Under the pieces are notes generated by a model. That model made no database searches and was not told the origin of the DNA. It saw only the letters and a list, made by a program, of their open reading frames with translations. A stretch of 64,000 nt of DNA, from contig OZ024760.1 of assembly GCA_964016885.1 (NCBI GenBank), positions 992,001 through 1,056,000 of the forward strand, read 5' to 3'. The position numbers and the translations under genes were made by a program. The DNA comes from Eledone cirrhosa (lineage: Eukaryota). Each line of letters starts with the position of its first letter. The first letter of the stretch is position 1. Below, in pieces: positions 2,900 to 63,599 of the stretch.

Positions 2900-2950
<51 letters not shown>
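2019..2950. repeat. (TA)n/(TG)n low-complexity tract
   Basis: Direct inspection. Confidence 0.95.
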
Positions 2951-2952
<2 letters not shown>

Positions 2953-3147
2953 CGAAGGAAATGTGGTAAGGAACCAGGTGGACCATAACGCACCAAAGTA
3001 CTCAATACTTAGGGTAGTAGAGTGGTTAATAGGATCCAGTAAGACCCCGACGGCTGAGCTCAAGCCGTTTCGACGGCTAATTGAGTCCAGAATTAGCCGT
3101 CGAAACGGCTTGAGCTCAGCCGTCGGGATCTTACTGGTTCCTATTAA
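2951..3147. mobile_element. pLTR-like fragment with 57-bp-arm fold-back palindrome (3026-3147) containing a hammerhead 3' half
   Basis: Arms 3026-3082 and 3091-3147 with 2 mismatches; GAAACGGC-ttgagctca-GCCGTC stem III motif; 2960-3025 homologous to 36078-36145. Confidence 0.75.
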
Positions 3148-8769: not shown

Positions 8770-9280
8770 GGTATTGGTGGTGGTGGTGGTGGTAGTAGTG
8801 ATGGTCATGGTAGTGGTGATGGTGTTGGTGGTAGTGATGGTCATAGTGGTGGTGGTGGTGGTAGTGGTGATTGTGATGGTGGTGGTGGTGGTAGTGGTGG
8901 TAGTAGTGGTGGTGGTAGTGATGGTGGTGGTAGTGATGGTGGTGCTAGTAGTGATGGAGGTAGTGGTGGTGGTTGTAGTAGTGATGGTGGTAGTGGTGGT
9001 GGTAGTGATGGTGGTGCTAGTAGTGGTGGTGGTAGTAATGGTGGTGCTAGTAGTGATGGAGGTAGTGATGGTGGTGGAGGTAGTGATGGTGGTGGTGGTA
9101 GTGGTAGTAGTGGCAGTGGTAGTGATATTGCTGCATACCTTTCCCTTCATTCTCTTTATTTGTTGCACCTAACTAGATGTATTAACCATCACCATCTCCA
9201 TCATCATCATCATCATCATTTTTCTCATCACCATCATCACTGCCACCACCACCACCATAGCCATCATCATCTATCTCCTT
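8770..9280. repeat. (GGT)n and (CAT/CAC)n trinucleotide tracts
   Basis: Direct inspection; source of the poly-G/V/T/H ORFs. Confidence 0.92.
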
Positions 9281-9757
9281 ATCATCATCATCATTTTACG
9301 TCCGCTTTTCCCTGCTTGCAAGGGTGGGACGGGTCCTATTCAGCACAGCATCTCTCCACTTGTCACGGTCCTTCGTCATCTCCACCGTGAGCTTCAATGA
9401 TCTGAGGTCAGCTCTCACCACCTCCGCCCATGTTTTACGTGATCTTCCTCTACTGCGTCTTCCTTCTACTGGCATTTCTTGGCACTTCTTTACCCAGCGG
9501 TCATCCTCCATGTGCATCACATGTCCATACCATCTCAGTCCTCTCTCCCGCACACTACAACTTATCCCTCTTATACACACCTTCTCTCTCAACACATTCA
9601 CACTGGGTCGTTCACGCACATTTACACTGCACATCCAACGGAGCATGCTTGCTTCATTTCTCTCCAGCTGTCGCATATCCTCTGCAGTTGCCGCCCATGT
9701 CTCACTACCATGCAGCATCGCGCATCTCACACAGGCATCATATAACCGGCCTTTTGT
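9281..9757 (-). mobile_element. 5'-truncated RTE-clade LINE (RT C-terminus, (TGA)n tail)
   Basis: [55 protein letters not shown]; trinucleotide tail. Confidence 0.92.
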
Positions 9758-10165
9758 ACATGTGTGTGTCTCTATATAGATTTGTATGTATATGTATGGG
9801 TATAGATTTTTATATGTGTATATATATATGTGTGTATATATATATATATGTATGTACATGTGTATATATATATGTGTGTATATGTGTATATATATATGTG
9901 TGTATTTATATGTGTATGTATATATATATGTGTGTGTATTTATATGTATGTATATGTGTATATTTATGTGTGTATATATATATATATGTGTGTGTGTGTA
10001 TATATGTCTGTATATATATATACATATATATAAATATATATACAAATATATATATACATAAAGGTTCAATGAATAAATCAAAGAATGAGTTTTACAATAG
10101 ATTGGAAGCACTCAATGACTGAATCTTAACCATTTACTATGTCAGGGTATGTCATCCTTCATCTT

Positions 10166-19452: not shown

Positions 19453-19640
19453 GGCGGTGGATTGGAAGTATCGATAGAGGGTCGGACGCCATGCTTTCCA
19501 GCATAGTTACGTCCCTTTACGATCTGAGTTCAAATCCCGCCGAGGTTGACTTTGCCTTTCATCCTTACGGGGTCGATAAAATAAAGTACCAGTAATGCAC
19601 TGGGTAATTGCTGGCCTTGTGCCAAAAGTAGAAACAGTTA
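19453..19640 (+). mobile_element. SINE family A copy with 18-bp TSD
   Basis: GTTATTTTACATATATAT on both sides. Confidence 0.9.
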
Positions 19641-19746: not shown

Positions 19747-20390
19747 AAATGGAAGTTTTGGCTGTGGCCAAGCTAGCGATATACAATTAGGTTTGTGCAG
19801 CAAAGCACTCAATAAGGGTGTATCACCTTACAGTAATAAACATACATTAGATAGCGTGACAAATTGAAAACTGTGGCAGGCATGCCTCGCCACATAACAG
19901 CAAAGCAACAAAAATACATTCAGGTTAGATAACAAACCTGGACCGTCTCGAAAGGTGTTGTGCAATACCTCCGATAGGTTTCTGTGAGTCCAAAATCAAC
20001 AATCCTACTTGCGCAATATGGCAAGTTTATGGTATTCGATGACAGAACTGTGGACTCATGTTATCAACAGGTTTCCGTTCTGTGCCCCAAACAGGTGTAA
20101 AGTGTGTAGGCTACTACGAATGGTAGCAGTCAATGTTTCACTATCACGTGCTTTTTCCCCAACGAGGAAATTGGCAGCAAATTTAAAGTGTGAACACAGG
20201 AATTGATGCCATTCCACAAACCGAATAAGAAGCTCTCAACTGGACGTTTATATATATATATGAATGAAAGGGTGGGCCAACCGTTACTTTGTTCCGAGGC
20301 CCCAAGAGCTAGCAACATCCATTTTGAGAAAAATCTTTGCCTACTTCGGCGCCCTAAAGGGCCCTGTACTGCCTTGTATACAGTATGAAT
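19747..20390 (+). other. Unclassified ~640-nt hairpin-rich non-coding element (structured family, member A)
   Basis: More than 10 short hairpins; shares ordered motifs with 44.9, 56.4 and 57.0 kb (see findings); flanked by microsatellites. Confidence 0.7.
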
Positions 20391-22791: not shown

Positions 22792-23026
22792 ATATTGTTA
22801 TACTTGGGGAGGGTCATATTTGTGTAATATTGCCAGAATTAATAACAGAACACACTCACTGTTTGGTTGGTTTTCGCTTTTGAAAAGTGAAAACCAACCA
22901 AACAGTGAGTGTGTTCTGTTATTAATTCTGGCAATATTACACAAATATGAACCTCCCCAAGTATAACAATATTTGTTATGACACACGATTTCATATAAAA
23001 AACCTCGCAAAACTAATTCATCGCCG

Positions 23027-26546: not shown

Positions 26547-26678
26547 GCAAAAGTTTTATTTAAGATTGTTGGGTTACAACGAGTAAATATTTTATAACTG
26601 ATATAAAAGCACTCAACAGTTTCTGGAGTAGGTTTACGATATTAAACAAATGGAAACTATATTTATAAAACCATATTT

Positions 26679-26742
26679 ATTTCGTTATATATATTTCTGG
26701 GATATCATATTAAAAATATGGTATGCCTTCCTCAGACAAAAT
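26679..26742 (-). ncRNA. Minimal hammerhead in pLTR-like repeat (26550-26800)
   Basis: ATTTTGT-CTGAGGA-agg..ccca-GAAA-TATATA-TA-ACGAAAT; stem I covaries relative to the 37.6 kb copy. Confidence 0.7.
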
Positions 26743-26820
26743 ACAATACATAAGCTGTTTTATAAATAATTATTGACATACCTTATAATAATGCAACTTC
26801 CATTTAAAAAGTTGATTTGG

Positions 26821-36271: not shown

Positions 36272-37319
36272 ATCATCATCATCATCATCATCGTTTAACG
36301 TCCATATTCCACGCTTGCATGGGTTTGGACGGGAGTTTTCCCACTTGAGGCAAGAGTGGTTGTCTTGCTCGCATAGGACTGTCTGGCGGGTTTTCTACGG
36401 CTGGATGCCCTTCCTAACACCAACCACATTTACAGTGTGGACTGGGAGGTTTTTACCATGTTACCTACACGGCCACATTACAGCGTGGACTGTGTGTTTT
36501 TTTTGTCTTGACACCTACACGACCTCATTTGTTTCGGACTGGATGTTGTGGTACCAACATAACTTTACATTGAAAGGGGTGGTGTGGATGGGGTGTGGGT
36601 AGTGTGACGGGGTTGTATTTTTGTTAGAGGTGCCTACTGACTGTAGTAGGTTTCACTTTGTACTTAGGTAAGGCAGGTCTTCTGTATTACTGTGTAGAGC
36701 CAAAGATCTCGGTCCAGTGACATTGTCTTGGAAAGGTGTAAGTGTGTGAGGTCGGAATTTATCAAGTCGTCCCAGGTTTTTCTGGGTCTGCCTACTCCGT
36801 GGCTACCGTCTATTTTTATTTCCCTGCACTTTTTTATACAGCTGTCGTCTTTCATGCGCATCACGTGACCATACCAACGTAGTCTTCTCTCGAGTAAACA
36901 ACATCTGATCCCTCTTATTTCTAATTTTTCCCTTAGTTCGTTTATGCTTTGCCGTTCACGTATATTACTATTACACATCCAGCGGAGCATGCAAGCTTCG
37001 TTCCTCTCCAGTCTGCATATATCCTCTGCATACAATGCCCAGGTCTCACTGCCATGTAACATTGCTGTTCGTATGCAGGCATCATACAGCCTGCTTTTCA
37101 TTTTTAGAGAGAACCCTTTAGCGGCTAATAGTGGTATAAGCTCTCTGAACTTTTTCCATCCAGTTCTGACTCTAGCTACTGTTCTTTCAGAGCACCTTCC
37201 ACCACTGCTGATTTTGTCACCCAAGTAACGGAAGGTGTCCACTATTTCTATAGAACCATATGTGCAATGGAATGAGCTAGTATTTTGTGGGCACTTGCTG
37301 CTACTTATTGCACCAGAGC

Positions 37320-37321
<2 letters not shown>
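36272..37321 (-). mobile_element. 5'-truncated RTE-clade LINE: RT C-terminus (stop at 36664), ~390-bp 3'UTR and (TGA)n tail
   Basis: [58 protein letters not shown]. Confidence 0.93.
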
Positions 37322-37385
<64 letters not shown>

Positions 37386-37424
37386 ATATTAATAAATGGA
37401 AACTATATTTATAAAACCATAATT

Positions 37425-44170: not shown

Positions 44171-44916
44171 TGCTGGTGTAGGGCTTAGTGTCTATCTTCA
44201 AATTGAATTAAGGAAAGAAAAGGCGAGGGTGGTTCCCTTGTTATAAGACTGGTTGGGTGGGAGTTGTCGGGCAGAGTATGTGTGTGTAGTGGGGTTATAT
44301 GAGGGTTGGCAGTGGTGGTGGTGGAATGAGGTGGGGGGGGAGCTCAGCAGGAAGATACCTGGTGTGTTGGTACATATCATGTTTAGGGCACTCTTAAAGG
44401 GACAGACAGATAACACTCACACACACACATACATACACAGACACATACAAGTATACAAACATACAAGTACACACACGTACACAAACACATTCACACGCAT
44501 ACAAGTACACAAACATACATGTACACATACACACAGGCATACAAACATACAAGTACACATACACAAGTACACACACACACACCCACGTACACAAACATAC
44601 ATGTACACATACACACAGGCATACAAACATACAAGTATACATACACAGACACACATACAAACAAGTACAGACACACACACAAAGAAACAAGTACACAAAC
44701 ACACACACACATACACACACACATACACACATGCGTAGACACGTATGTACATCTATAGACATATATATACACAGTCATATGACATACTGAATATAATATA
44801 TGCATGTGCATTCACGCTCACACATGAATGCATATATACACACATTCAAACTCATGCATACACACACATACTACTTACAAATACACAAATAGATACAAAT
44901 ATGCATATATATATAT

Positions 44917-45190
44917 AAACAAACATAAATTATCGAGATTCGCATTTCGGCCCACGAAATAATGAAAAACAACCTCCGAGATGTGTGGCAAGTGCTCAAT
45001 GATTCAGATGAACCAGAGCTATAACAAACGTTAAAGGCCAAACACACTAAGACGATGGTTAAACAATCATTCGTATAGCCAAAAATTTACCCGGACCCCT
45101 GGAAGGTTGGTAAAATCCAGTATATGGGTTTCTGCGGCTCCTAAATTAAGTACCGTCCGCTTACATAAATAATGTCAGGCTTCTGGTAAA
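44917..45190 (+). other. Truncated diverged member (B) of the structured non-coding family
   Basis: Aligns by eye to 57028-57130 and 57260-57345; (TA)n on both sides. Confidence 0.75.
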
Positions 45191-45440
45191 TAATATATAT
45201 ATATATATATATAAATATTTCGTTTCTGAATTTGTTTAGCAAGATTCTTTATCTGAAATCGTGTGTTGAAACCGATATTGTTATACTTTGGGAGGGTCAT
45301 GTTGCCAATAAGAAACACACACACCAGTTGCTTTCACTTCAATTTATTATAATAAATTTATAAATTTAGGAATTTATAAATTTATAAATTTCTGGTTGGT
45401 TGGTTGGTTGGTTCCACAACCAGGTAGTTGTTTATATATT

Positions 45441-45482
45441 GTCAAAGTTCTTTCGTCACACATTCTGTGACCTCATCAGTGA
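45441..45482 (-). ncRNA. Type I hammerhead ribozyme in PLE pLTR
   Basis: TCA-CTGATGA-G-GTCACA gaatg TGTGAC-GAAA-GAAC-TT-TGAC, ~200 nt downstream of the ORF stop. Confidence 0.85.
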
Positions 45483-45683
45483 GTGGGATTCTTTTCTTTG
45501 TTTTTGTGCCTCTCTTTTGTTCTGTCCTACGCCATTTTGTTTCTGTGTGTGTGTTGTGTGCTCTCTCTGCGCATGCGCCACATCCGGGTGTCTGTGTGTG
45601 TTTATATTTGTTTATTTATTTGTTTATTTACATGTTACCGGTTGGTTGTTTGTTCTATGTGTGTGTGTGTTTTCATTTTGTCC

Positions 45684-46973
45684 TTAATTGTAAGTTGTGA
45701 TGTTGCTGTTCCACTCATATTTTCTATTTAATTTTGGTTGTAATTCTTTTATGTTTATTGCCTCTGTAATTTGTCTAAACATTGCGTCTTTTCTGTGTGT
45801 AGATTCTATTTTTATTTCTATGTTCTCTAATTTACCCTTGTGTTCTATTTTAGCATGTTGGTAGAGTACAGATGATTCTTTACTATCTTGAAGGTCTCGC
45901 CAGTGTTCATTTATCCGTTCCCCTACACTACGGGCTGTCTCACCTATGTACACTATATTTTTGTCTCTACATTGTCCTTCAGTACATCTTATGCTATACA
46001 CTACATTTCTAGTTTTACAGTTAATATGGGGGCTTATTTTACAGGTTATACATTTCTTATCTATACAGGGGGGTCTTTGAAAAGGGTATGTCTTGCTAAT
46101 AAGTGTTTTTACGGAGGTACCTGGTCTTTCTACTATCTTAATATTGAGTTTATGTTTATCTAGGGCCCTTCTAAATTTGTAAGCTAATTCACTTCTAGGG
46201 GTTGTATCGATGAACATTACACTCTGGTATTTATTGCTATCATACCATGAGTTTATTCTATTAGCCTTATTCCTAGTTCTTTCTATTCTATTCCAAAATT
46301 TGCTCCTATACAAGGTTCAGGTCCCATTTGTGTCATTATTTACCATTTTTTCCCATTTGGTTCTGACTCCTCTATACACTCCGATTTTATCTCTCTGATT
46401 GTAACCAGAGAACTGCATACGGTGGATGAAGTGTTGTATGTGTCTCTCTAGTTCTTCGGGGTTGCACATGCGGGACACGTTTCTCATCACCCGTACCAAA
46501 TCCGCAATCAGTATGTTGATTTTGGTATGGTCCAAAACAGCCGAGTTTCGGTGGATCAGATGTTTGGAAGTCATGGGTTTGGCATAATGGGAATGGAGGA
46601 TTTGTTTTTTATTATTAATGGTATCTAACCAGAGCTCTGTGTCTAGTACAGGTAATCGATGGTTGGGGTGTTTACTTGGGTAGTCTATAGTAACTCTAAT
46701 ACTCTGGTGGATGGAGTTAGCTATTTGCAGGATGCTTTCCATTGTGTTTTTCTCTAGTTCCTGACTGTTCTCTAGTGGGGGTGTCTTAACTACGATGTTT
46801 ATATCATCAACGTAGCGGGAGTACATTATCAGGGTTAAGGGGTCTTCTAATTGTTCTTTAAGTTTAAGTTTAAGTCTACTGTCCCACCATACCATGAATA
46901 AGTTAGCTATGTCGCCTGCAATGCTAACACCAATGGCTGCTCCTTCCTCTTGGGCATATGTTTTTCCATTAAA
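45684..46973 (-). pseudogene. PLE reverse transcriptase (motifs B/C, thumb) fused to Cys-rich linker and GIY-YIG endonuclease; one in-frame TGA at 46317-46319
   Basis: FNGKTYAQEEGAAIGVSIAGDIANLFM, YSRYVDDI, LPVLD, C-x4-C-x2-C..C..NVVY..C..C..YIGETAR..R..EH; the two ORF-track pieces are in the same frame. Confidence 0.93.
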
Positions 46974-53164: not shown

Positions 53165-53220
53165 ATTTATAATATTAAAATATAAGTATTAATAAAATAG
53201 ATGTTCTTTTGATCAATTAC

Positions 53221-53273
53221 ATTTTATTATACATATTTCGGATGTACAACAGTACGTCCTCATCAGACAAAAT
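53221..53273 (-). ncRNA. Minimal type I hammerhead ribozyme
   Basis: ATTTTGT-CTGATGA-GGACGTAC tgtt GTACATCC-GAAA-TATGTA-TA-ATAAAAT. Confidence 0.82.
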
Positions 53274-53387
53274 ATAATGATACATGACATACCCTGAGAT
53301 GTTAAATGGTTAAGATTTAATCAAGGTAGTACTACCTTGATTAAATCTTAACCATTTAACATCTCAGGGTATGTCATGTATCATTAT

Positions 53388-56444: not shown

Positions 56445-56997
56445 CAAAATTAAGATAAATCAAAATGAATTTAATCTAAATCAAAATTATGGGTGTCATG
56501 CCAGAAAGACATGCGCCATATCACCCGCAAAATAAGCTCTAAGATTCTAACGAGGAGGTCCGAGCATTTTATAATAACTAGAAATTGATTAACATATAAA
56601 TAAACATGAATAATCAAAAGAGATAATTGTTACAAGTGTGTAAGCACACATAGCTAGGTAGGTAACTAAATAAAGTTGACCAGAACTTCAAAAATAGATA
56701 CCTTATAATATGATTAATCTTCCCTGTATATATTCCATTAAAGAAATATATTTCACCAATTAATCGAATGGTAAACCATGGAGGCCGGTACTTGGATTTT
56801 CAACAAGGAAGAAGTCCAGCGATCTATGTTTACACTTCAAGTTCAAATCAGCGACTGGCCAGCAACACGTGCCGTATCTACTAGAAATACACATCATACC
56901 AGCTTCGTCACAGTGGCGTGGATAGCGTTATCGACAACTAGAAACAGCAGTCAAGTCCTTTCAACAGAGTTAGCTCTACAATTAAGGAGCCGTATTT
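56445..56997 (+). other. Distant member (C) of the structured non-coding family
   Basis: GCTC-TAA-GATTC..GAGC, TGGATAGCGTTATCGACA and GCAGTCAA in the family order; TA flanks. Confidence 0.55.
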
Positions 56998-57011
56998 ATA
57001 TATCTATATAT

Positions 57012-58423
57012 ATATATTAGAAAGATCGAGTATCGAAAAATCGGCGCACGAGTTAACGAAAAACGAAATCCGATATGAGCGGCAGAGGGCTCAATAATTC
57101 AGATGAATCAGAGCTATAACTATCGTTAAAATACCGTCACATATAGAACAAGTCTACAATCAACCATACGATTTAAAATCGATAAAGGAAGATTCGGGCC
57201 AAACAGATAAAAAATATCAAAAAAACAATACGTCAATAATTTAAATGAATGTAAAATCATACCCGGACCCACTAGAAAGGTGTTAAATCTAGCTTCATGG
57301 GTTTCTGTAAATCCTTAGACAGTACTCTATCAGCTCACATATAAATATAAAAGCCTACTAGAATAAGTGGAATGGAGTTTACGTTGTCAACGAGTTTTAT
57401 CCTGGCGGCAAAGGAGTCAACTAGCGGTGAAAAACGCACATGGCATTAGACAAGGGAGATGACCCCTATATCCGCGAAAATAATTCGAGTGAATGTGGAA
57501 ATACACATATCGAATTAGAGTGCTCAATAGACATGTTAAAATAAAACAAAAGCTATTCATCACTCAATAGAATCGACAAAATATGAGCAATAAAATTAAC
57601 TGGTGGATAGCTATGTCCAGAGCTAAATATATTAGAAAGATCGAGTATCGAAAAATCGGCGCACGAGTTAACGAAAAACGAAATCCGATATGAGCGGCAG
57701 AGGGCTCAATAATTCAGATGAATCAGAGCTATAACTATCGTTAAAATACCGTCACATATAGAACAAGTCTACAATCAACCATACGATTTAAAATCGATAA
57801 AGGAAGATTCGGGCCAAACAGATAAAAAATATCAAAAAAACAATACGTCAATAATTTAAATGAATGTAAAATCATACCCGGACCCACTAGAAAGGTGTTA
57901 AATCTAGCTTCATGGGTTTCTGTAAATCCTTAGACAGTACTCTATCAGCTCACATATAAATATAAAAGCCTACTAGAATAAGTGGAATGGAGTTTACGTT
58001 GTCAACGAGTTTTATCCTGGCGGCAAAGGAGTCAACTAGCGGTGAAAAACGCACATGGCATTAGACAAGGGAGATGACCCCTATATCCGCGAAAATAATT
58101 CGAGTGAATGTGGAAATACACATATCGAATTAGAGTGCTCAATAGACATGTTAAAATAAAACAAAAGCTATTCATCACTCAATAGAATCGACAAAATATG
58201 AGCAATAAAATTAACTGGTGGATAGCTATGTCCAGAGCTAAATATATTAGAAAGATCGAGTATCGAAAAATCGGCGCACGAGTTAACGAAAAACGAAATC
58301 CGATATGAGCGGCAGAGGGCTCAATAATTCAGATGAATCAGAGCTATAACTATCGTTAAAATACCGTCACATATAGAACAAGTCTACAATCAACCATACG
58401 ATTTAAAATCGATAAAGGAAGAT
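57012..58423 (+). repeat. 2.3 head-to-tail copies of a 615-bp non-coding structured unit (member D)
   Basis: AAAGATCGAG at 57021, 57636 and 58251; copies identical by eye; (TA)n on both sides. Confidence 0.95.
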
Positions 58424-58510: not shown

Positions 58511-58560
<50 letters not shown>

Positions 58561-58561
58561 T

Positions 58562-63599
<5,038 letters not shown>

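Follow-up and report, generated by a model that had tools for sequence, protein, structure and literature searches.

Four repeat families (A to D), each with a copy in the window (the whole 64-kb stretch of DNA analysed here, rich in TA microsatellite and part of a 3.0-Gb genome), carry a type I hammerhead motif with a U3-A8 core and covarying helices, at which cleavage is predicted (Table 1). We read these families, with a probability of about 0.7, as non-LTR retrozymes, that is, hammerhead monomers that would be closed into circles and copied into (TA)n by a Hydra-clade reverse transcriptase (RT) of the Penelope-like elements (PLEs) rolling round the circle. The pattern of its copies marks family D as a young, protein-less mobile element, and on sequence criteria the functional strand of A to D is the minus strand. 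Their hammerhead is not a new ribozyme class.

The D array and its relatives in the window

Locus D is an exact 615-nt tandem, with a fixed 3′ end at 57012 against (TA)n and a 5′ truncation at 58423, and it sits within the TA run at the end of the family C unit. The first-pass annotation had noted stops in all six of its frames, and indeed the longest stop-free stretch is 62 aa. Judged by its frames and by the array ends, D is non-coding and LTR-free, as a non-LTR retrozyme should be.

That annotation had also treated the four loci as relatives sharing five motifs (1 to 5). An nhmmer search linked D with B (E 1.6e-14) and A (E 1.9e-5) and detected no D–C link; alignment scores of family C against D, A and B were reached by 2, 13 and 1 of 100 shuffles, so that common ancestry of C with the other three is unproven. 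Families that keep the helices and the core are 47–63% identical to one another. The window's B copy has an internal deletion in addition to its truncation; full B copies elsewhere have a UUGAGAA core. The A unit, once thought to reach 20390, ends at 20248, and 20260-20390 is a separate, TA-flanked piece of 130 nt.

Table 1. Features of the putative retrozymes and of the candidate helper (window positions)
Feature	Position	Strand	Basis or remark
Family D array (putative retrozyme), 2.30 units of 615 nt	57012..58423	- (RNA sense)	
Predicted excised 615-nt monomer (putative circle)	57266..57880	-	between both cleavage sites; inferred from tandem and hammerhead scan
D unit 1 type I hammerhead	57261..57395	-	scan, minimum-energy fold, pair counts
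D unit 1 stem I	57395-57391 with 57265-57261	-	
D unit 1 core UUGACAA	57390-57384	-	
D unit 1 helix II domain; GAAA; helix III	57383-57306; 57305-57302; 57302-57267	-	
D unit 1 predicted cleavage	between 57266 and 57265	-	after GUC
D unit 2 hammerhead, identical	57876..58010	-	predicted cleavage between 57881 and 57880
Blocker strand CCYG (motif 2a)	57195..57199, also 57810-57814	-	RNAalifold
Motif 1 core ATTGAGYNCTY	57085..57095, also 57700-57710, 58315-58325	-	
Family C unit (putative retrozyme), one unit	56445..57009	-	
C hammerhead	56718-56812	-	core UUGAAAA 56803-56797; predicted cleavage 56727/56726
Family A unit (putative retrozyme), 5′-truncated	19747..20248	-	
A hammerhead	19934-20074	-	core UUGAUAA 20067-20061; predicted cleavage 19941/19940
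Family B copy (putative retrozyme), truncated inside helix II, without 5′ core	44915..45189	-	
Hydra-clade PLE 3′ stub with inverted 5′ piece, candidate helper	2950..3147	-	

A type I hammerhead with a U3-A8 core

The first-pass annotation had seen no known ribozyme. Read on the minus strand, however, its motifs 4, 3 and 2 make up a type I hammerhead, with UUGAYAA from motif 4, a GAAA within motif 3, and motif 2b supplying GUC and then stem I. The element therefore falls under the non-LTR retrozymes. Motifs 2b and 3 were confirmed in A, B and D. The other motifs were found only in part: motif 1 matches strictly in A and D but has a different spacing in B; motif 4 is strict in A and D, with only a relaxed form in C; and motif 5 is present at the three places reported for it but is not conserved in other families. 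Moreover, motifs 4 and 5 of C, which had been counted among the shared motifs, lie outside the C hammerhead.

All four families carry the hammerhead with the core variant UUGA-N-AA, in which U3-A8 replaces C3-G8, and the core follows the consensus Y3-UGA-N-R8-A9...GAAA...UH with a 3-8 pair. Position 7, which is free in hammerheads, differs between the families (D has C, A has U, B has G and C has A), and position 17 is never G. A generic type I scan gave eight hits in the window, with U3-A8 only in A, C and the two D units. The 11-nt core is intact in 25 of 31 A copies, 18 of 21 B copies, 27 of 32 C copies and 6 of 7 D copies.

A pattern for helix III and the cleavage site was matched 6,676 times genome-wide, and its reversed control 11 times. 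We aligned 25 copies, namely D and A from the window, one B, two more A and 20 pattern loci (35 pattern loci were read, of which seven had no recognisable core through truncation or mutation and seven were omitted as near-duplicates or poor matches). In the collecting pattern, helices I and III were each fixed on their 3′ strand; it left free the core, helix II and the 5′ strand of stem I, and family C is independent of it. The hammerhead structure pairs in 91.4% of cells, vs. 23–44% with the partners slid; by helix, the values are 97.6, 88.8 and 93.0% for I, II and III, helix I being open-ended. Both-sided changes occur in 41 cells, a number reached by none of 500 shuffles (which ignore relatedness). 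The helix test was passed by 22 of 26 genome loci. Pattern matches in metagenomes (at least 118) and viruses (16), considered as possible relatives, failed it in 134 of 134 cases and are thus attributed to chance.

Covarying helices had been claimed from the start, and helix II, the distal part of helix III and the blocker helix described below bear this out. A proposed TGTT-atc-AACA hairpin does not: it is the strand of the catalytic core taken in the reverse direction, and an A after A9 breaks it in 16 of the 25 copies. Across the same 25 copies the 3-8 pair is U3-A8 in 20, U3.G8 in four and C3.A8 in one. In three D arrays (L031, L048 and L049, from two contigs) all units carry the A8-to-G change (unit position 374), and a U3.G8 lineage seems to be spreading among D arrays.

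The helix II domain spans 75–81 nt (42 in C), and helix III is long and stable. At the base of helix II all 25 copies have an A.A or C.A mismatch, which may slow the predicted cleavage. The G10.1-C11.1 position is G-C or G.U in 22 of 25, with an additional A.A or C.A beside it; in family C, U.U is followed by C-G. Folded by itself, the D or A region has the three-way junction as its minimum-energy structure. Two results count against the structure: neither fold is more stable than those of shuffles (z of -1.3 for D and -1.1 for A), and the minimum-energy fold of C lacks helix II. The core is barely more conserved than its flanks in A, B and C, and not more so in D.

Searching Rfam with the window returned only microsatellite-driven miRNA noise among the best 150 of 642 matches, and 56445-58423 gave one chance hit and no ribozyme match. 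It is because of the U3-A8 core and the long helices that thousands of these hammerheads escape Rfam, and surveys of retrozymes may undercount. Resemblance to group I and II introns, RNase P, HDV, twister or hatchet was entertained and set aside. U3-A8 is a reported natural hammerhead covariation, active in vitro (PMC3088659), and some 1,300 U3-A8 motifs are reported with Schistosoma PLEs (PMC4209133).

Strand of the RNA

Circular folding gave z scores of -3.0, -2.3, -4.8 and -2.3 for the minus strands of D, A, B and C, and of -0.6, -0.9, -1.9 and -0.8 for their plus strands (12 shuffles each). Four helices, read on the minus strand, hold 58 G.U cells vs. 16 A.C cells. In target-primed reverse transcription the fixed end of an insertion is the end at which priming occurred; the fixed end of the D array is then the priming end, and therefore the plus strand is the cDNA and the RNA is the minus strand. 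The generic type I scan found no plus-strand hammerhead in the A to D loci.

Insertion into (TA)n and growth of arrays

A genome search with D gave at least 180 matches (25 of 398 candidates scored); the 150 matches listed, all nearly identical units, come from arrays on 11 contigs. Genome-wide, 723 D ends are joined to (TA)n and there are 1,422 head-to-tail internal junctions. D is thus dispersed and mobile, with tandem units that each bear a hammerhead, as in non-LTR retrozymes generally. Its arrays range from under 1 to about 18 units.

We read 21 D arrays, the window's and 20 others. Twenty of these start at the identical base beside TA, and the 21st begins at an assembly gap; their far ends are scattered, and none lies at the predicted cleavage site. 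One D array continues into an inverted piece, family C has many such pieces, and A, B and C share the fixed TA end of D. The start site is 200–260 nt 3′ of the predicted cleavage site, so that priming is internal. Internal priming in vitro is also reported for the RT of a lizard PLE, which inserted without hammerhead cleavage, using uncleaved RNA (PMC11167929).

Four sites have alleles that every unit of an array shares (123 units in the 21 arrays), and variants confined to a single unit never recur in another array; one array has a 617-nt period throughout. The array-wide alleles and the 617-nt array fit repeated copying of one monomer. Together with the one fixed and one random end, such private alleles fit rolling-circle reverse transcription of a putative 615-nt circle. 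Later expansion at the DNA level would homogenise arrays too, and two arrays (L032 and L039) that each have a variant in two of their units give hints of DNA-level events. The older A, B and C copies have at most about 2.5 units within 1.5-kb flanks, which is the reverse of what slow expansion predicts. Of the sequencing runs listed with this sequence, none is recorded as RNA. Contigs from four of seven sequencing runs included one, of 645 nt in X5, in which the unit is closed on itself; a DNA tandem would give the same contig, and we therefore do not count it as evidence for a circle.

A predicted blocker helix

Motif 2a of the first-pass annotation repeats the 5′ strand of stem I further downstream, past the predicted cleavage site, and is predicted (RNAalifold) to pair with the 3′ strand of that stem. 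This pairing is possible in 17 of 17 aligned copies and covaries, with CGGG/CCCG in 13, CAGG/CCUG in three and one wobble. The predicted pair probability of the blocker in the D circle is 0.77–0.88; in the predicted circles of A, B and D its pairing is 0.71–1.0, while stem I drops to about 0.01. In a transcript that ends before the blocker, stem I has a probability of 0.64–0.69 in D, about 0.1 in A and 0 in B; a high nascent value is thus found only in D, which counts against a switch in A and B. From these models we infer that the blocker could act as a switch that protects the circle in A, B and D. A blocker helix in C was rejected, since the C circle keeps stem I. Most animal retrozyme circles are described as leaving the ribozyme free, and plant retrozymes and viroids as having it blocked in the circle (PMC7229834).

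A candidate helper among the Penelope-like elements

The stub at 2950-3147 is TA-flanked and holds helix III, the GUC site and motif 1, and longer copies of it extend into a frame for an RT with a C-terminal GIY-YIG domain. The open reading frame of this Hydra-type element (L378/L379/L381) has RWR, DKT, CxCX5C and CxxC/CxH motifs and a (TA)n target, by which it would belong to the Hydra clade as defined in PMC8557442, where members of the clade are said to target (TA)n. The frame is followed by a long-helix U3-A8 hammerhead, motif 1 and TA. The hammerhead keeps the UUGA core and the long helices in seven of eight copies, the eighth having C3, and A at position 8 in all eight. The family is young (at least 99% identity in 150 of 150 among the matches listed), with frames of up to about 790 aa and several 784-aa frames in 3.5-kb tandems. 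The candidate helper thus itself forms long tandems; at G000:C1:437198620-437213199, five copies stand head to tail with a 3,531-nt period, four of them with 784-aa frames.

Motif 1 was defined in the first-pass annotation before the Hydra-type element was seen. It lies 40–80 nt before the (TA)n junction and is common to Hydra-type PLE 3′ ends, with an exact match in the Hydra-type element and one mismatch in a second Hydra-type family. It occurs in 173 distinct contexts, vs. five for the reversed control, in a set of loci enriched for the families studied; 101 of the 173 are 40–79 nt before a TA run. Motif 1 is thus a candidate RT-recognition site, and it may recruit the RT, in line with the RT-recruiting RNA that had been among the first suggestions. 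Whole 3′ ends of the retrozymes gave no significant alignment to those of the Hydra or Neptune-like elements, by profile or pairwise.

The long-helix U3-A8 hammerhead, motif 1 and the (TA)n target are all shared with the retrozymes, and for this reason the young Hydra-clade PLE is their likely helper and, of the two PLE types, the better guess. Neptune-like Penelope elements (RT, CX5CxxC linker, GIY-YIG) occur in the window at 45215-46973 (-) and 1072-about 2000 (+). Their hammerhead, near 45445-45480, is of the minimal C3-G8 type and, as in the retrozymes, stands some 240 nt from the 3′ end; the element ends in TA, and motif 1 is missing from its 3′ end. The family is young and abundant (97–100% identity in 150 of 150 among the matches listed), with frames of up to 995 aa (L221). 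C3-G8 hammerheads in which helix III is AT-rich mark further 3′ ends, at about 26547-26795 (-), at 53170-53320 (-) and in L380; the copy at 26735 has motif 1 and matches L380, the second Hydra-type family. In a third Hydra-like end (L167 712-1340, +, a 3′ end) the hammerhead has short helices and a UUGAGAA core, so that U3-A8 recurs among the Hydra-type elements of this genome. A Naiad PLE was discarded as a source, the elements found with a C-terminal endonuclease being Hydra-type and Neptune-like.

Proposed mechanism and its alternatives

In the retrozyme reading, the minus strand of a tandem array would be transcribed, and the type I hammerhead of each unit would cut after GUC (AUA in C) to give a monomer of 546–626 nt, which a host RtcB-type ligase would close into a circle. 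Other animal retrozymes are known to be closed by such ligases. The downstream CCYG of A-, B- and D-type units would then pair with the new 5′ end and displace stem I, protecting the circle. A Penelope-like RT-endonuclease, most likely that of the young Hydra-clade family, would nick (TA)n, and the cDNA would start at the fixed internal site and roll round the circle. The product would be an array with one fixed end, one random end and sometimes an inverted piece, which is the pattern seen in the genome. The RNA of A to D thus probably uses Penelope-like machinery, and D probably forms a 615-nt circle. We tentatively go further, at rather less than even odds: these may be self-gating circular RNA parasites that cut themselves during transcription, lock the ribozyme off as in viroids, and hand the RNA over to the Hydra-clade RT through motif 1, up to about 18 units being copied in one pass. 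If true, this would give animal retrozymes a named, young helper-passenger pair with a mapped cis signal, and retrozymes with long-helix U3-A8 hammerheads would be a layer of animal genomes missed by standard descriptors.

A retrozyme of the same kind could be served by a Neptune-like or other PLE, a possibility that differs only in the helper and that we consider rather unlikely. For it speak the youth of the Neptune-like family, its (TA)n end, a hammerhead about as far from the 3′ end as that of the retrozymes, and the lack of significant alignment of retrozyme 3′ ends to either helper; against it, the Neptune-like hammerhead is of the minimal C3-G8 kind and the 3′ end of the family has no motif 1, which two Hydra-type families have at the same distance from TA. 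Less likely still, a PLE-dependent element with a weak or protein-dependent hammerhead might be copied from uncleaved linear multimers, with no circle, its arrays lengthening by unequal crossover. Longer arrays would then be expected in older families, whereas the longest are found in the youngest, and the array-wide private alleles, the absence of single-unit variants passed between arrays, and the retention of helices and core across such divergent families all speak against such copying. On its side are the blocker helix, which forms 20–70 nt from the cleavage site and may pre-empt cleavage, the two arrays with variants in two units, the internal start and use of uncleaved RNA reported for a PLE RT in vitro (PMC11167929), and the local expansion proposed in a 2026 preprint (10.64898/2026.07.22.740005).

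A plus-strand RNA with an undescribed catalytic core, as the first-pass annotation proposed, is very improbable, since motifs 2–4 map exactly on the core and stems of the minus-strand hammerhead, the plus strand folds no better than shuffles and shows no hammerhead in these loci in the type I scan, and the polarity of fixed and truncated ends makes it the cDNA strand; this is so even though the motifs are collinear, no Rfam family matches, and one motif-2 helix pair is G.U only on the plus strand. DNA rolling circles can also yield head-to-tail arrays with one fixed end, as a Helitron-like or satellite DNA repeat with a relic hammerhead would do. We give such a repeat equally little credence in view of the compensatory changes in RNA helices, the motif and ribozyme type common to an RT-encoding element, and the strict (TA)n target with inverted 5′ pieces, as reported for PLEs (PMC8557442).

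Relation to known systems

The first-pass annotation had likened the element to retrozymes. As a non-coding, structured, mobile tandem it does resemble them, but the likeness is not merely an analogy, nor is the ribozyme lacking, and the unit of about 600 nt is not larger than theirs, lying within the published 51–972 bp (bioRxiv 10.64898/2026.07.22.740005). Like the animal non-LTR retrozymes reported so far (PMC7229834; 10.64898/2026.07.22.740005), A to D are non-coding, AT-rich tandem units with type I hammerheads, in dispersed arrays in a genome that has PLEs. They differ from those described in their U3-A8 (sometimes U3.G8) core, the size of the helix II domain, a long, stable helix III in place of one of 1–2 bp, a covarying blocker helix where most animal circles leave the ribozyme free, and a strict (TA)n target with a mapped fixed start. 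In the same preprint, eight of nine Xenopus retrozymes did not cleave, which counts against the cleavage step proposed for A to D.

With Hydra-clade PLEs, as described in PMC8557442, they share the (TA)n target and the tandem and inverted structure. Close to the 3′ end both have a type I hammerhead whose helix III is paired and whose helix II often has one more pair at its base; that paper lists one Hydra family from an octopus. In contrast to A to D, the Hydra hammerheads of File S2 of that paper are all C3-G8 with short loops, and these PLEs encode protein where A to D encode none. The compensatory core change is the same as in published U3-A8 variants (PMC3088659), including that of the Schistosoma PLE Cercyon (PMC4209133); the Schistosoma motifs are described as minimal and mostly single, whereas here helix III is long and the units are in tandem. 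Plant LTR retrozymes and hammerhead viroids have a similar size (about 600 nt or more) and a ribozyme that a complementary sequence blocks in the circle (PMC7229834). Unlike A to D, plant retrozymes have LTRs, rely on Gypsy helpers and carry hammerheads of type III. In viroids both strands carry ribozymes; A to D lack this feature of viroid-like RNA, no plus-strand hammerhead being found.

Our literature searches found no description of cephalopod retrozymes; the animal retrozyme papers, in the text available, cover no cephalopod (PMC7229834; 10.64898/2026.07.22.740005), and the available text of a 2026 octopus repeat annotation makes no mention of hammerheads or retrozymes (PMC13282606). Already in print are non-LTR retrozymes, their link to PLEs and their unit length (10.64898/2026.07.22.740005), and the U3-A8 core. 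What seems new is the combination of a long-helix U3-A8 hammerhead, a blocker helix, a strict TA target and a cis motif shared with a young Hydra-clade element. In the published accounts, the RT that moves retrozymes and the circle as its template are still presented as hypotheses (PMC7229834; 10.64898/2026.07.22.740005). Both candidate partners are present in this genome and are young: D, a 615-nt passenger whose near-identical insertions number in the hundreds and begin at one fixed site, and a putative helper that retains full-length frames and has the target, the ribozyme type and a short motif in common with it, which makes the question of the RT and the circle directly testable in vitro.

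Other features of the window

Fragments of the RT end of an RTE-like LINE occur at 58560-59050 (-), 9260-9780 and 36660-37420; the one just past the 5′ end of the D array could supply read-through transcription. At 22840-22925, Rfam mir-181 scored 45.2 bits (cut-off 45.5) on both strands, probably an artefact of a TA palindrome. A dispersed tRNA-SINE-like repeat lies at 19500-19640, and we take it to resemble a cephalopod SINE. Upstream of the hammerhead in most families (57430-57450 in D, and equivalents) there is a GGGG..CCCU hairpin followed by a CACGTG/CATGTG palindrome, possibly an internal promoter or an RNA helix.
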